Origin: Vicinamibacteria bacterium
GTDB taxonomy: Bacteria; Acidobacteriota; Vicinamibacteria; Fen-336; JAGNNV01
Direction: 5' to 3'
Length of the DNA: 30,616 bases
NCBI GenBank assembly: GCA_039916365.1
Contig: JBDSLN010000240.1
Coordinates: forward strand, 1-30,616
The notes below the pieces were generated by a model. It made no database searches. It saw only the letters and a list, made by a program, of their open reading frames with translations, and was not told where the DNA came from. A program made the position numbers and the translations under genes. Shown piece after piece: positions 2,528-24,829 of this stretch (position 1 is its first letter; every line of letters starts with the position of its first letter).

Positions 2528-3601
2528 GTGACCGAAACCTTGCCGACCGCTCTCGTCACGGGGTTTCCCGGCTTCATCGGCGAACGCCTGCTGCCAAGGC
2601 TCCTGGAGTTGCATCCACGAACGGAGTTCTTCTGCCTCGTGCAGGCACGCTTTAAGGATCAGGCGCTGAAGGCGCTGCAGCGCCTTGGCCTCCCCCCAGG
2701 CCGCGCGCGCCTCGTCGAAGGCGACATCACGCTCGACGCTCTCGGCATCACGCCCGCCGAACGGGAAACCATCCTGGGTCGGCTCGATGCGGTCTTCCAC
2801 CTCGCTGCGGTCTACGACCTCGCGGTGAAGCCGGAGTTCGCGCATCGCGTGAACGTGATCGGCACGCGGAACATGATCGCGTTCGCGAAAGCTGCGCCAG
2901 GCTTCAAGCGATTCCATCACGTTTCCACCGCTTACGTCTCGGGGACGTTCGAGGGCACGTTCCGCGAGACCGACCTCAACCGCGGCCAGAGCTTCAAGAA
3001 TCACTACGAGCACACGAAGTTCGAATCCGAGCACGATGTGGTGTCGAGCGGCCTGCCCTACACGGTCTACCGTCCCGGCGTCGTGTGGGGCGATTCCAAG
3101 ACCGGCGAGACCGCGAAGTTTGATGGACCGTACGGCGTCATGGTTGCGATGGAGAGACTCCCGTTCGTCTTTCTTGACGGACCGAGTGGCGCCACCATGA
3201 ACGTGGTGCCGGTCGACTACGTCATTGAAGGACTAGCGCTCCTTTCTGCTTCGCCGATCAGTCTTGGCAAGACCTACAACCTGACAGATCCGCAAGGTAA
3301 GGACGTCCGAACCCTCACCCGGCTGATCGCGAAGGCGCTAGGACGTTCGTACGTGTACGTCCCGGTGCCGCTTGTGCTGGTTCGCCAGGCCGTTTCGATC
3401 CCCGGCATCGGGTCAACCCTTGGGCTGATTCCGGAATCGATCGTTTATTTCGGGCATCGCTGCCACTACGACGCCACCCAGGCGAAGACCGATCTCGCGT
3501 CCCTGGGCCTCACCTGTCCGCCCGTCGAGGCCTATGTGGACGTCATCGTGAAGTTCTGGCGCGAAAACCGCGATCGGGTGCGCAAGACGGCCATGGTGTG
3601 A
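2528..3601 (+). CDS. Extended SDR oxidoreductase (NAD-dependent epimerase / thioester-reductase-like)
   Basis: Rossmann motif LVTGFPGFIG, HLAAVYD, VSTAYVSG, catalytic YEHTK (YxxxK), RPGVVWGDSKTG. Confidence 0.85.
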   Translation: MTETLPTALVTGFPGFIGERLLPRLLELHPRTEFFCLVQARFKDQALKALQRLGLPPGRARLVEGDITLDALGITPAERETILGRLDAVFHLAAVYDLAVKPEFAHRVNVIGTRNMIAFAKAAPGFKRFHHVSTAYVSGTFEGTFRETDLNRGQSFKNHYEHTKFESEHDVVSSGLPYTVYRPGVVWGDSKTGETAKFDGPYGVMVAMERLPFVFLDGPSGATMNVVPVDYVIEGLALLSASPISLGKTYNLTDPQGKDVRTLTRLIAKALGRSYVYVPVPLVLVRQAVSIPGIGSTLGLIPESIVYFGHRCHYDATQAKTDLASLGLTCPPVEAYVDVIVKFWRENRDRVRKTAMV

Positions 3602-3611
3602 GTCCGCGTTC

Positions 3612-5450
3612 TTGATAGCACTTCTCGTCCTTGCTTCGGTTTGCTTCGCCGGTTCGCTGCTCGCCTGTCGCCTTGATCGGAACGGAGCCCGGCTCGCGGA
3701 TGCGCTGGCCCTCGGCGCAACCCTGGGCCTGGCCCTCTTCGCGGCCACGGGCTTCGTGCTTGGCTGGATCGCCGGACTCACGCCGTTCACCGTTTTGTGC
3801 GCCGCCCTGATCGCGATCGGTGTTTGCGTCTTTGGCGGAGTGCCGTTCGCGGTTCTGAGGGGAAGGAACACCAAAGCGCCACCCTTGGCCGTCTGGATGT
3901 TGATGGCGGTCAGCTCGATCCTGATTGTCCGGCTCGCGGATCGAACCGTCTTCGAGACATCGACCGGCGCCATTGCCACAGCGGATCGTCATAACTTTGG
4001 CGACCTTCCGTTCCATATGAGCATCGCGGCCGGGTTCGCATACGGCGACAATTTCCCGCCCCAGCATCCCGAGCTTTCCGGGGTATCTCTCACCTATCCG
4101 TTCTTCGGCAACGTGATCGCGGGAATGATTCTGGTTCTCGGCGGAAGCTTCCGCGATGCGTTCTTCTGGCCCGCACTGATCCTCGGCCTGAGTGTCGTGG
4201 CGGCACTCGTCCGTTTTGGCGAAGCGGTCACGGGATCAAGGTCCGTCGGCCGCGCCGCCGCGGCCATGACGTTTTTCTCCGGCGGGCTTGGATTCTTGAA
4301 ACTCACGAGTCAGGCGGCGCTTCAGCAGTGGTGGACCAGCGGTCCCGATCTGACCATCGACGATGCGGGGACGCGCTACGCGAACTTCGTCACGACCATG
4401 TTCATTCCGCAAAGATCCATCCTTTTCGGATGGCCGCTTCTTTTCTTCGCCCTTGCCCTGGTGATCGAGAGTCGTCGGTTGGACGTCGCGGAGCCGGCCG
4501 AGCGGGTGCGCCTTTGGACTTGCGCTGGAATCATCGGTTCCCTGCTTCCTCTGGTCCACGCTCACTCGTTCGCGGTGCTGTCGTTCTGCGTGGTGATGCT
4601 TGGGGCCTACACCGATTGGAAACTGATCTTCCGTTTCGCGGCCGGCGTCTTGCCGCTCGCTCTGCCCGCAGTCATTTTCATGGCGACACGAAACTCTCTT
4701 TCGACCAGCAAGTTCTTCGGGTGGCAACCGGGCTTCGACGGGGGCCATGACCACATTCTTAATTACTGGATGATGAACGCCGGTCTCTTTCTTCCCCTCG
4801 TCATCATTGGCCTGGCACGCGCCCGCGACGCCTCAGTGAGTGCCCCGCTCGCCGCGCCTTTTGCGTCGCTTTTCATCCTGGCGAATCTGTTCCGGCTCTC
4901 TCCGTGGATCTGGGACAACATGAAGTTCCTTGCCCCCGCACACGCGGGCCTAGCGCCCTTCGCCGCCCTCGCGCTGGCCTTCCTCTGGCGTCATGGCAAC
5001 GCAGGCCGGGCCGCGGCCTCGGTGGTTTTCGCGGCGACGATCGCCTCCGGATTGCTGGATGTCTCGAAGGTGGCGCTCGCCGGCGGCGAATTCCAGATCT
5101 TCAGCAGCGACGATCTGGCCTTCGCGGAGAAGGTCCGCGCCGCGACTCCGGCTGACACCGTGATCCTCACCGCACCCACTCACAATCACCCGGTTCTCCT
5201 GTCGGGACGCCGCCTCTTCTACGGCTATGAAGGACATCTCTGGTCTCAAGGCCTCACCTACGTTGACCGAAGGGCGGCCGCAGAAAGCATGCTGCGCGGC
5301 CAACGTCCGATCACCGATGAAGTCCAGGGCATCCGGATTGGAGCGGTGGCGGTGACCTCGGCTGAAGGCCCGCAGGTTCTTGATCCACGGGCTATCGAGG
5401 GGCTTCCATCCCTGGTCGATTCCCCCTATCGTCTCTTGAAAGTTCGATGA
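3612..5450 (+). CDS. Polytopic membrane protein, putative GT-C glycosyltransferase
   Basis: 612 aa, many TM segments. External-loop motif NFGDLPFHMSIAAGFAYGDNFPPQHPELSGVSLTYPFF and a C-terminal soluble domain (LLSGRRLFYGYEGHLWSQG). TTG start uncertain. Confidence 0.65.
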   Translation: MIALLVLASVCFAGSLLACRLDRNGARLADALALGATLGLALFAATGFVLGWIAGLTPFTVLCAALIAIGVCVFGGVPFAVLRGRNTKAPPLAVWMLMAVSSILIVRLADRTVFETSTGAIATADRHNFGDLPFHMSIAAGFAYGDNFPPQHPELSGVSLTYPFFGNVIAGMILVLGGSFRDAFFWPALILGLSVVAALVRFGEAVTGSRSVGRAAAAMTFFSGGLGFLKLTSQAALQQWWTSGPDLTIDDAGTRYANFVTTMFIPQRSILFGWPLLFFALALVIESRRLDVAEPAERVRLWTCAGIIGSLLPLVHAHSFAVLSFCVVMLGAYTDWKLIFRFAAGVLPLALPAVIFMATRNSLSTSKFFGWQPGFDGGHDHILNYWMMNAGLFLPLVIIGLARARDASVSAPLAAPFASLFILANLFRLSPWIWDNMKFLAPAHAGLAPFAALALAFLWRHGNAGRAAASVVFAATIASGLLDVSKVALAGGEFQIFSSDDLAFAEKVRAATPADTVILTAPTHNHPVLLSGRRLFYGYEGHLWSQGLTYVDRRAAAESMLRGQRPITDEVQGIRIGAVAVTSAEGPQVLDPRAIEGLPSLVDSPYRLLKVR

Positions 5451-21055: not shown

Positions 21056-22099
21056 TCAGAGCTTCTTCGGTTCCTGCTGGGTCGCGCAGTGAACCGTGCC
21101 AAGTCCCCACACGAAGTCGACGGCGTGGAAACCCACGACCTCCCGATCCGGGAAGCAGTCGGCAAGGATGCCAAGTGCTATGCGATCCATCGGGTCGTTG
21201 AAGGTCGGCACGATCACGACGCCGTTGGCGATGTAGAAGTTCGCGTAACTCGCAGGCAGACGCTGCCTATCGAAGAAGACCGCGGCAGGCATCGGCAGCG
21301 GAATGACTTCGACCTTCTCAGTCTTGAGTCGTTCGAGGTTGTCGCGGAGCAGGGCGTAGTTCTCGTCGCTTTCATTTTTTTCCTGACAGAGAAGGACACG
21401 GCCGGGTGCGACAAAGCGGGCGAGATCGTCGATGTGGCCATGCGTGTCGTCGCCCACGATGCCGCGATCGAGCCAGATCACGCGCTTGACGCCGAGCGTA
21501 TCCGCAAGAACCTTCTCCGTTCCCGCGCGGCCAAGGCCCGGATTCCGCGCCTGCACATTCGAGAGAAGACACTCTTCCGTGGCCATCAGAAGACCCGCTC
21601 CGTCGACTTCGATCGCGCCACCTTCAAGGACGATCTCCCGCTCGCCCACGAGAACACGGTGCTCCTCCGTCTTCAGCGCCTTTGCGATCTTCGCTGCAAC
21701 AGCATCGTCGCGCTTGTGATTCGGATACTTCGCCCAGCCGTTGAACTTCCAATGCGTCGCGATCCGCTCGCCGCGCTTGTTCGTCACGAAGATCGCGCCC
21801 GAATCGCGCGTCCACACGCGATCGGTGGGAACCCGGTAAAAGTCGATCTTCGCGAGATCCACACCCACCTTGGTGAGAACCGCGTGCGCTTTCTTTTCGA
21901 GCGCCACGTCTCCGACAAGGATGCGAACGCGCTCGTTGCGCGACAGCAGACGAACCAACTCTCCGTAGGCCCAGGGAATGGGCGCGAAGCGGCCGGGCCA
22001 GTCTTTCGTTTCGTGGGGCCAGGCGATCCAGGTCGCTTCATGCGACGTCCACTCGGCGGGCATGGAGTACCCGCGGCGAGCAAGAGTGGAGGCGCTCAC
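21056..22099 (-). CDS. aguA: Agmatine deiminase
   Basis: MPAEWTSHEATWIAWP, VWTRDSG, LEGGAIEVDG, DDTHGHIDD, ASYANFYIAN, GLGTVHCATQQEP. Confidence 0.95.
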   Translation of the reverse strand: MSASTLARRGYSMPAEWTSHEATWIAWPHETKDWPGRFAPIPWAYGELVRLLSRNERVRILVGDVALEKKAHAVLTKVGVDLAKIDFYRVPTDRVWTRDSGAIFVTNKRGERIATHWKFNGWAKYPNHKRDDAVAAKIAKALKTEEHRVLVGEREIVLEGGAIEVDGAGLLMATEECLLSNVQARNPGLGRAGTEKVLADTLGVKRVIWLDRGIVGDDTHGHIDDLARFVAPGRVLLCQEKNESDENYALLRDNLERLKTEKVEVIPLPMPAAVFFDRQRLPASYANFYIANGVVIVPTFNDPMDRIALGILADCFPDREVVGFHAVDFVWGLGTVHCATQQEPKKL

Positions 22100-22974
22100 G
22101 GCTTTTCGAGATGGCGCTGAGTGAGTCCGCCATACGCATCAATGCGGCGATCGCGGAAGAACGGCCAGTGCTGACGCGCGGTCTCCACCTTCTTGGTGTC
22201 GATCTCCGCCACCACGACTTCGGGCTGGTCGTGCGAGGCCATGGCGAGCTGACGGCCGTAGGGATCGAAGATGAACGACGACCCGAAGAACTCGATGCCC
22301 GCCTTCTTGTCGCCCTCGTGACCGACGCGGTTCACGCCCACCACATACACGCCGTTCGCGATGGCGTGAGATCGCTGCATAGTCTGCCAGGCGGTGACCT
22401 GCGCCTCGCCCCATTCCTTCTTCTCGCTCGGATGCCAGCCGATCGCCGTCGGGTAGAAAAGAATCGGAGCGCCCAGAAGGGCGGTCATGCGGGCGGCCTC
22501 GGGGTACCACTGATCCCAGCAAATCAAGGTACCGACTTTGCCGTACCTCGTGTCGATCGCTTTGAAGCCAAGGTCGCCGGGCGTGAAGTAGAACTTCTCG
22601 TAATAGAGAGGATCGTCGGGGATGTGCATCTTGCGGTACATGCCCGCGAGCTTGCCGTCCGTGTCCATGACCACGGACGTGTTGTGATACAGGCCGGCGG
22701 CGCGGCGTTCGAAGAGCGAGCCGAGGATCACGATGTTCAGCGACTTCGCGAGAGCGCCGAGCTTCTTCGTCGAGGGGCCGGGAATCGCCTCGGCGCGCGC
22801 GAACTGCGAGTGATCCTCGGTCTGGCAGAAATAATGGCCTAGATAAAGCTCGGGAAGGCACACGATGCGAGCACCCTTTTTCGCCGCCTCGCGGATACCT
22901 TTCTCGGCGGCGGCCTGATTCTTGGCTGCGTCATCGGTACAGCGCATCTGCACCAAACCCACGATGGTCTTCAT
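22096..22974 (-). CDS. aguB: N-carbamoylputrescine amidase (carbon-nitrogen hydrolase)
   Basis: Nitrilase triad in CLPELY, YRKMHIPDDPLYYEKFYFTPGD and ICWDQWYPE; ends FFRDRRIDAYG. 4-nt overlap with aguA. Confidence 0.93.
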   Translation of the reverse strand: MKTIVGLVQMRCTDDAAKNQAAAEKGIREAAKKGARIVCLPELYLGHYFCQTEDHSQFARAEAIPGPSTKKLGALAKSLNIVILGSLFERRAAGLYHNTSVVMDTDGKLAGMYRKMHIPDDPLYYEKFYFTPGDLGFKAIDTRYGKVGTLICWDQWYPEAARMTALLGAPILFYPTAIGWHPSEKKEWGEAQVTAWQTMQRSHAIANGVYVVGVNRVGHEGDKKAGIEFFGSSFIFDPYGRQLAMASHDQPEVVVAEIDTKKVETARQHWPFFRDRRIDAYGGLTQRHLEKP

Positions 22975-23045: not shown

Positions 23046-24794
23046 CTACACCATGTTCTCGCGGCTGCGTTCCAACACGGTGCGCAGGTTCGCGACGACT
23101 CGGTCCTGCTCCGTGTCCTTGAGGCCAAGGATCTCCTTGAGGGCGATGCCGATGTGCGGAATGAACTTGTCGATGTAGCCGCGCTTCTTCGCTTCAGCCT
23201 GTTCGCGCTTGCCGCGGCGGATGTGGATGCCAAGACGGCGGCCCACTTCCATCAGTCCCAGACGAAGTTCTTTGACGATCTCAGTGTAGTGCGCAATCGC
23301 TTCCTTCGATTCGGACGTGAACGGAACCCACACCGACGCGATGTGGACCATCAGGACCATCGGACCCGAGGGCAAGGCGCCCTTCGACATCTGCATGCCG
23401 TAGCTGCGCCAGTCGATGCTCAAGGCCGCTTTGGTGATCGCGCAGGCCGACGCCTGATACTGGAGAGGCACGCGATTCGCGAAACGGAACAGCTCGATCA
23501 ATTCGTCGCTCGGCAAGCCGCCGCCGTGCGCCAGCGCCACTTCGACCTGGAACGGATTGCCGCGGTACACCGCGGGCGGACGCGTGACCGCATCGTAGAA
23601 GTCGGCTTTGAGTCGCGCGCGCAAACCCTTGAGCAACGCCTCTTCGCCGACCGGCGAAAGGCAGTTGGTCGGCGGCGCCATGATCTTCACTTTTCCGAAC
23701 GCCTTGTGGATGCGCTCGATGGCTGGTGTTTCCAGATCGCGCGGACGCGCTTTTTCGGAGACACCCGCGATCTTCAAGATCTCGCTGACCACACTTGGCG
23801 TCATGCGCGAGAAGTCGGTCTTGAGCGCAGTCGAGATGTGCTTCTCCTGAGAGTCCTGGAACATGCGCATGAGGCGGCCAAGTTCGACACCGTACGGATG
23901 AGGCTTGATCTCCTTCGCCTCTTCCGGAAGCTCGTGAACCGCGCGCTCGTAGGTGATGGTCTCGCAACCGGGTGCCGTGTAGATGACCTGGCAATGAGGG
24001 TTGGAGAGCGCCGTCTGCTCGACGTAGTCATCAACGCTGCGACGACCCTTCTTGTAGCTCGCTTCCAGCTCGATCTGCACCCGCGTGCCGTGCTGCTTGT
24101 CCCACTCGGTCTTCTCTTCCTTGAGGACGAGCGGCTGGTTCTTCCGCGTATCGACGGTGACCTCAAAAAGATGAGGCGGCGTCTGCGGCGAGGTACGGGA
24201 CACGATCACCACTGGCTTGCCGGTGGTGAGCTGGCCGTACATGCCGGCCGCGGACACGCCGATCCCCTGCTGGCCGCGCTGTTGCTTCAGGCGATGGAAC
24301 TTCGAACCGTAGAGGAGCTTGCCGAAGACCTTGGGGATCTGCGCCTTGACGATACCGGGGCCGTTGTCTTCCACCGCGATCCGGTACCGATCTTCCGCCA
24401 GTTCGAGGATTTCAATCCGGAGGTCGGGAAGGATGCCCGCTTCTTCGCAGGCGTCGAGCGAGTTGTCGACGCACTCGCGCACCGCGGTGAGCAACGACTT
24501 CTGCTTGTTGTCGAAGCCAAGGAGATGGCGGTTTTTGACGAAGAACTCAGAGACGGAGATCTCGCGCTGCTTCTCGGCCAGACTTTCGGCGGTGGCGCGA
24601 CGGGCGGGCGCCTTGCGAACGGGCACAGGCTCCACCTCGATCGCCGAGTCGTCTTCGTCTGCAAGGACGGGGGGAGGTTCTGGCGCTTCCGTCTCAGCCG
24701 GGGCGATCTCGACCGCCCCTGTTTCTACTTCGTCTGCGTTCGCGTCAAAGAGGGAAGGCTGTGCGGCCTTCGCGCGAACGTTCTTTTTTGACAT
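23046..24794 (-). CDS. top6B: DNA topoisomerase VI subunit B
   Basis: [24 protein letters not shown] motifs [36 protein letters not shown] and [35 protein letters not shown]. Confidence 0.96.
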
Positions 24795-24817
24795 AGCCAA
24801 GATGGACCAACGACCTC

Positions 24818-24829
24818 CAGAAAAGTGCT
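24818..24829. repeat. 12-bp direct repeat CAGAAAAGTGCT, right copy
   Basis: Exact match to 22988-22999; lies in the top6B-EamA intergenic region. Confidence 0.9.

Follow-up and report, generated by a model that had tools for sequence, protein, structure and literature searches.

Structures of the B subunit of archaeal topoisomerase VI (Topo VI), Top6B, from Methanosarcina mazei (2Q2E) and Saccharolobus shibatae (2ZBK, 1MX0) display a Bergerat ATPase, an H2TH domain and a transducer. This architecture is shared by the product of the top6B gene discussed here, which lies on the minus strand of contig JBDSLN010000240.1 of a Vicinamibacteria bacterium, within a stretch of 30,616 nucleotides that was analysed as a whole (the window). 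The source assembly is a metagenome-assembled genome (MAG) of 538 contigs that is 70% complete, and related loci likewise place it in the Vicinamibacteria, phylum Acidobacteriota. Unlike the bacterial protein, the archaeal structures begin at the equivalent of its residues 68-73, so that both the N-terminal tail and the Q..LF motif are absent from them. The nearest archaeal relatives in our tree (Woesearchaeota, Nanoarchaeota) have motif-free N-termini of ~23-48 residues before the core. The Top6B of the window carries the pentapeptide QPSLF near the tip of its N-terminal extension, a motif of the type by which proteins bind the sliding clamp of bacteria (beta clamp, DnaN). Comparison with related sequences indicates that this tail is probably a tether that binds the clamp and brings the decatenase to DNA that has just been replicated.

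Bacterial Topo VI has previously been surveyed by Allen & Maxwell 2024 (PMC11302465), who reported a situation like the one here, with gyrase present and Topo IV mostly absent, and interpreted it to mean that a specialised decatenase is needed. In contrast to the present case, the term "clamp" refers in that work only to the GHKL ATP gate, and no sliding-clamp motif, N-terminal extension or Acidobacteria are described. For partners of the beta clamp, the published consensus is QL(S/D)LF, with acknowledged variability (PMC9690074). Known clients of the clamp, such as Pol II, Pol IV, MutS and Hda, resemble the Top6B tail in having Gln at position 1, Leu at position 4 and Phe at position 5, in the location of the motif in a disordered terminus, and in the variability of its flanks. 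The clamp motif of Hda is also N-terminal. The Top6B of the window differs from these clients in belonging to the type IIB topoisomerases, which do not appear in the list of partners, in having Pro at position 2, and in that binding is putative. NucS (EndoMS) of Actinobacteria is, like the proposed Top6B, an archaeal-type DNA enzyme in a bacterium with terminal x-x-x-L-F clamp docking: its terminal [E/K]-[L/Y]-[T/R]-L-F binds the beta clamp, and archaeal NucS uses a PCNA-interacting-protein (PIP) motif on PCNA (PMC8228993). Unlike Top6B, NucS acts as an endonuclease on mismatches and has a C-terminal motif and an experimentally supported interaction. Archaeal Top6B has no known PCNA motif that could have been swapped. 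Protein contacts that position a decatenase on replicated DNA, as proposed here, are also known for E. coli Topo IV (ParC-MukB, ParC-SeqA) and for eukaryotic Topo II-alpha with PCNA, but these involve other partners and interfaces, and the E. coli cases lack a short N-terminal clamp motif. No description was found in the literature searched of topoisomerase VI, Top6B or ParC in connection with a clamp-binding motif, the beta clamp or DnaN. What is new here is the conservation of the motif across an acidobacterial clade, the exchange of Topo IV for Topo VI within a class, the motif lexicon of the host, and the parallel with ParC.

The features of the top6B locus are the following (positions in the window):

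23046-24794, minus strand: top6B coding sequence, 582 amino acids from the ATG at 24794-24792 (from the open reading frame list and the translation).
24597-24794, minus strand: N-terminal extension, residues 1-66, missing from archaeal Top6B and predicted to be disordered.
24762-24794, minus strand: basic head, residues 1-11, with four basic residues (translation).
24747-24761, minus strand: QPSLF, a pentapeptide of the beta-clamp-binding type, residues 12-16, with Asp17 next to it (translation).
24618-24746, minus strand: acidic linker rich in Pro, Ala and Glu, residues 17-59 (translation).
24814-24818, minus strand: GGAGG, a possible Shine-Dalgarno sequence, 13 nucleotides 5' of the TTG at 24800 and 19 nucleotides 5' of the ATG at 24794.

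The gene product is best explained as the B (ATPase) subunit of a working Topo VI, with predicted strand-passage activity. It scores 686 bits against the NCBIfam equivalog NF003218 (cut-off 274) and 545 bits against TIGR01052 (cut-off 381), and it matches the Pfam models HATPase_c (1.5e-10), HATPase_c_3 and Topo-VIb_trans (PF09239, 1.3e-57, covering model positions 1-159 of 159). M. mazei Top6B (2Q2E) aligns with residues 68-569 at E = 4e-150, and residues E107, N111, D143, G145 and G147 of the GHKL/Bergerat ATPase are invariant in an alignment of 58 sequences. A Top6A/Spo11-type partner with TP6A_N and Toprim domains is present in the same genome as an intact open reading frame of 368 amino acids. 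Translation of top6B starts at the TTG at 24800, an in-frame alternative that adds two residues, or at the ATG at 24794, each of which lies upstream of QPSLF; relatives without this ATG appear to use the equivalent TTG. The GGAGG is kept in close relatives, where it is read as "GGR" in the in-frame upstream translation, but given its long spacing to both starts it is a weak candidate for the Shine-Dalgarno sequence of top6B.

The original prediction had described an extension of about 65 amino acids before the conserved core, composed of a basic start, QPSLF at 24747-24761 and an acidic linker rich in Pro, Ala and Glu, and this description is accurate down to the coordinates of the motif. The alignment with the NCBIfam equivalog begins at residue 67, and the solved archaeal chains align their own residues 3-5 with residues 68-73. 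As family models and structures align only from residues 67-73 onwards, the first ~66 residues are therefore an addition. Residues 17-59 are rich in Pro and Ala and contain 14 Asp or Glu and no basic residue. In an AlphaFold2 model computed from the 58-sequence alignment, residues 1-60 have no secondary structure, and their predicted local distance difference test (pLDDT) score averages 43-55 in blocks of ten residues, compared to more than 90 in the core. Residues 11-17 form a slight local rise to at least 50, flanked by segments below 50. The motif (residues 12-16 of 582, pLDDT ~50) thus occupies the exposed, disordered, terminal position that is expected of a clamp-binding peptide.

A tail of this kind might act within the enzyme, as an autoinhibitory arm on the GHKL ATP gate, as a basic DNA-binding arm, or as an N-terminal degradation signal, in which case its likeness to clamp motifs would be incidental. 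N-terminal straps serve dimerisation in GHKL ATPases, which lends this idea some support, as do the basic head and acidic linker and the finding that some relatives have Lys-rich, histone-H1-like tails instead, which probably bind DNA. Against it, the tail is not docked on any part of the core in the AlphaFold2 model and has low confidence throughout, and conservation is confined to the five residues of the motif and the basic residues preceding it, as is usual for short linear motifs that mediate docking. An intra-enzyme or regulatory role is consequently considered quite improbable, and the docking of the tail on an external partner, DnaN in particular, is preferred.

Docking predicts that the motif is retained by orthologues. 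Among 120 Top6B homologues from the databases (67-100% identity), 92 have a motif of the Q..L.F type near the N-terminus, and in most of the remainder the annotated start falls within the motif or beyond it (MGLFEE, LDLFGE, MELFA, MSLFEA). Because gene calls are unreliable here, the frames were read from genomic DNA at 80 loci anchored by tblastn. Q-x-x-L-F is present in 52 of the 58 loci of the acidobacterial clade that have an intact 5' end, compared to 0.11 expected from a composition-preserving shuffle of each extension; these counts, like the others given here, are taken over related genomes and are not independent. The motif reads QPSLF in close relatives, QLDLF, QLGLF, QLALF, QLELF, QMDLF or QMELF in other Vicinamibacteria, and QASLF, QGSLF, QTSLF, QSSLF, QPGLF, QPALF, QQGLF, QAALF, QPDLF or QARLF in other classes. 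In 51 distinct contexts, in which Gln, Leu and Phe are invariant by construction as the contexts were chosen for having Q..LF, an Arg or Lys is found at position -5 in 44 and an Asp or Glu at position +1 in 32. The linker that follows cannot be aligned among orthologues, and the motif and the core are separated by 28 to 79 residues. The expectation of a motif conserved in orthologues amid a variable linker has therefore been borne out.

Whether the peptide is translated at all is a related question, as an over-extended reading frame in high-GC DNA, or chance, could also place five suitable letters upstream of a gene. In favor of this, gene callers often start past the motif (P0042-P0054), and the GGAGG is 13-19 nucleotides away from the candidate starts, which is long. 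In 17 close relatives, however, all nucleotide differences within the QPSLFD codons are at third positions, with the exception of one Gln-to-Glu change, indicating that the peptide is translated and under purifying selection. A start codon and a basic stretch also precede the motif in every case, and the motif persists despite complete turnover of the linker. The shuffling control and the positions at which the codons vary thus lead us to reject chance occurrence, and a translation start downstream of the motif, which the original prediction had named as fatal to it, is rejected on the same grounds, even though many database calls start there. Taken together, chance or untranslated sequence can be given almost no credence as an explanation. 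In the automatic calls for the Top6B entries P0042-P0054, and for the ParC-like entries P0274 and P0330, the start is a Met or Val further downstream or lies within the motif. Gene callers have in this way often deleted the tails from the protein databases, and annotation pipelines hide the feature.

The motif has a restricted distribution. In a maximum-likelihood tree of 72 Top6B core sequences, all 48 motif-bearing proteins (48/48) fall into one well-supported acidobacterial clade of 56. Eight members of this clade have no motif, three of which are truncated by contig ends; the other five (the subclade of L044, L045 and L054, as well as L055 and L070) look like losses. The outgroups sampled in the tree, comprising Woesearchaeota and Nanoarchaeota (DPANN), Planctomycetota and one myxobacterial MAG, are without the motif. 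Among 110 assessable representatives at 50% identity across Top6B diversity, none has Q..[LM]F before the core, with P0128 (QLSLL) and P0248 (QPSLGF) showing variant forms. The notion that the motif is common to Top6B at large, or to all bacterial Top6B, is thus rejected, as the sampled planctomycete and myxobacterial relatives also lack it. Similarly, the N-termini of Top6A, at the 30 loci with top6A beside top6B and in the genome of the window, contain no such motif, so that its residence on the A subunit is rejected as well.

Two further observations concern the Top6B tails. Lys-rich tails of the AKKxxAKK type, without a Leu-Phe motif, are found in L044, L045 (Acidobacteria bacterium Mor1), L054, P0122, P0125 and P0200, which suggests that these proteins follow another strategy and bind DNA directly. 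The acidobacteria also have a second Topo VI lineage, very divergent and on a long branch (L069, L070, L071, L083), with a Top6B that is ~50% identical to that of the window and an adjacent Top6A that is only ~35% identical to the Top6A of the window genome. Three of its four Top6B proteins have QLGLF, QLDLF or QLALF, which could be an independent acquisition.

The motif of the window and those of its orthologues (QLDLF, QLGLF, QLALF, QMDLF, QLELF) conform to QL(S/D)LF or to the looser Qxx[LM]F. The host has a candidate receptor: its DnaN, of 370 amino acids and encoded beside dnaA, can be aligned over its full length with the clamps of P. aeruginosa and E. coli, and the segments that form the binding cleft are conserved (RYYL, TDGHRL, N..YL and the C-terminal VLMPMRL). 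Terminal motifs of this kind are rare in the host, as Q-x-[STDGA]-L-F no more than 45 residues from an end occurs in only 11 of its 3365 open reading frames of at least 200 amino acids. These 11 include MutS (QLSLF), a family-B polymerase (PolB, QMSLF) and Top6B (QPSLF). DinB has QKSLLF near its C-terminus. The motifs of host MutS, PolB and DinB therefore show that Top6B shares the motif style of the recognised clamp clients of its own genome. The list also contains the large subunit of exonuclease VII (XseA; C320:12684-14276, L112), with QTTLF in an N-terminal extension, and an SOS-response-associated peptidase (SRAP) protein (C510:532-1212, L113), with a C-terminal QGSLF, both of which are candidate clamp clients of the host. 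The remaining six are RNase PH, in which the motif is in the region of the C-terminal domain, three hydrophobic, membrane-like contexts and two unidentified open reading frames. A PIP-box (Qxx[ILM]xx[FY][FY]) was considered and rejected, as positions 7-8 of QPSLFDAN are not aromatic and the clamp of the host is DnaN; the absence of a tail from the archaeal Top6B relatives is a further mismatch with that reading.

A comparable tag is present on a second decatenase. In lineages of the class that are negative for Top6B, the ParC-like protein starts with MAKRK(S/P)EPSLFD, followed by a disordered, Pro/Gly-rich linker of 35-60 residues and then the core:

L090:2255-2554 (and L092-L110), minus strand (L090): N-terminal tag of the ParC-like protein in genomes of the same class without Top6B.

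The pattern x-x-[ST]-L-[FLW]-D is found at the ParC-like N-terminus in 17 of 20 sampled genomes of the class. Of 120 ParC-like homologues from the databases, 97 have x-P-S-L-[FL]-D within the first 30 residues, and 18 more are calls that start just before the core. GyrA of the same genome has no such N-terminal tag. The fold of ParC is unrelated to that of the Top6B ATPase, and the combination of a basic head, a Leu-Phe motif and a disordered linker on unrelated folds argues for a common external partner and against an intramolecular role. An N-terminal tag that resembles a clamp motif appears to be undescribed for a Topo IV subunit. From these sequences, it is an even call whether sliding-clamp docking would be a general property of the dedicated decatenase in Acidobacteriota, with Top6B and ParC each having gained an N-terminal basic-x-x-S-L-F-D tether.

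The parallel with ParC also raises the possibility that the tag is a conserved docking peptide for a partner other than DnaN, such as the SMC/ScpAB condensin, FtsK, a nucleoid protein or a small adaptor, comparable to the ParC-MukB and ParC-SeqA contacts of E. coli. The element that Top6B of this genus and ParC have in common is xPSLFD, with Glu or Asp in ParC in place of Gln, and Topo IV of model bacteria is recruited via MukB and SeqA, with no clamp contact in reviews. To our knowledge, no x-x-S-L-F-D motif has been described for partners of the SMC, FtsK or SeqA type, which counts against this alternative. Most Vicinamibacteria Top6B proteins, moreover, bear the exact clamp consensus QL[D/G/A]LF, MutS, PolB and DinB of the same genome have motifs of the same style, and actinobacterial NucS shows that Glu or Lys at position 1 is compatible with clamp binding (PMC8228993). 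A non-DnaN partner is on this analysis unlikely, although it has better prospects than an intra-enzyme role, and DnaN would remain the favored partner.

The distribution of the enzymes themselves is consistent with a dedicated role for Topo VI. In a survey of 121 genomes of the class, all at least 90% complete with the exception of the MAG of the window, Top6B is found in 45, which belong to four families. A single gene of the GyrA/ParC family (PF00521) is present in 41 of these 45 genomes, as opposed to two or more in 71 of the 76 that lack Top6B. Of the paralogues in one Top6B-negative genome, one scores above the GyrA equivalog cut-off and the other below it, as a ParC-type subfamily. The presence of one instead of two GyrA/ParC genes, complementary to that of Top6B, thus indicates that Topo VI stands in for Topo IV, and the best explanation is that Topo VI took over the role of Topo IV as the dedicated decatenase in this lineage. 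In a phylum-wide search with the ParC N-terminus as query, most other Acidobacteriota had only one GyrA/ParC-type match.

The mechanism that we propose is the following. The Topo VI of this lineage would have gained a disordered N-terminal tail of ~66 residues, with a basic patch and Q-x-[S/D/G]-L-F at its tip, and this pentapeptide would bind the cleft of DnaN. The A2B2 enzyme would have two such tails, attached next to the ATP gate, and the flexible linker of ~45 residues would allow it to search the DNA around a loaded clamp. As clamps stay behind the fork on freshly made DNA, docking would enrich the decatenase at the sites where the sister duplexes become intertwined. We thus infer that DnaN is the partner of the tail and that replication-coupled unlinking would be the consequence. 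The clamp docking suggested in the original prediction is supported, as none of the refuting conditions that could be checked on the sequences held.

Several points weigh against this proposal. In the motif of the window, Pro takes the place of the consensus Leu at position 2, and in the ParC tag the Gln that is usual in clamp motifs is replaced by Glu or Asp, so that the element common to the two proteins, x-P-S-L-F-D, is no strict clamp motif and may serve another partner. A table of bacterial clamp partners in a 2022 review contains no topoisomerase. The motif is not indispensable, as Lys-rich tails take its place in the subclade of L044, L045 and L054, and L055 and L070 are also without it. 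Finally, the complementarity of Topo IV and Topo VI reflects few independent evolutionary events, as kin share their gene content by descent.

How decatenases find intertwined sister duplexes behind the fork is a question that MukB and SeqA answer for E. coli, and these answers apply to a narrow set of bacteria. If the proposal is correct, a clamp peptide on a topoisomerase would be a simple and portable answer, in which the enzyme rides the clamps that mark new DNA, and an archaea-derived enzyme would have been wired into the bacterial replisome by the gain of ~15 residues. The similar tag on the Topo IV ParC of sister lineages would make this more than the curiosity of a single protein, and if general in Acidobacteriota, it would represent a mode of type II topoisomerase recruitment that has been described in no bacterium.

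By Pfam, the neighbors of top6B are a CN hydrolase that resembles N-carbamoylputrescine amidase, an agmatine deiminase, and a divergent transporter of the EamA type, of which the first two follow top6B:

21056-22974, minus strand: genes for the CN hydrolase (aguB-like) and agmatine deiminase.

In the window genome, top6A is unlinked to top6B and lies on contig C359 (locus L086) at 1799-2905; among related loci, it is found within 3 kb of top6B in ~30 of 80. Just 3' of top6A, at 3026-4045 on the plus strand of C359, is a gene for a protein of 339 amino acids with a Lys/Ala/Pro-rich, histone-H1-like N-terminal half. NCBIfam gave no match for this protein, which could be a nucleoid protein or an accessory factor of Topo VI.

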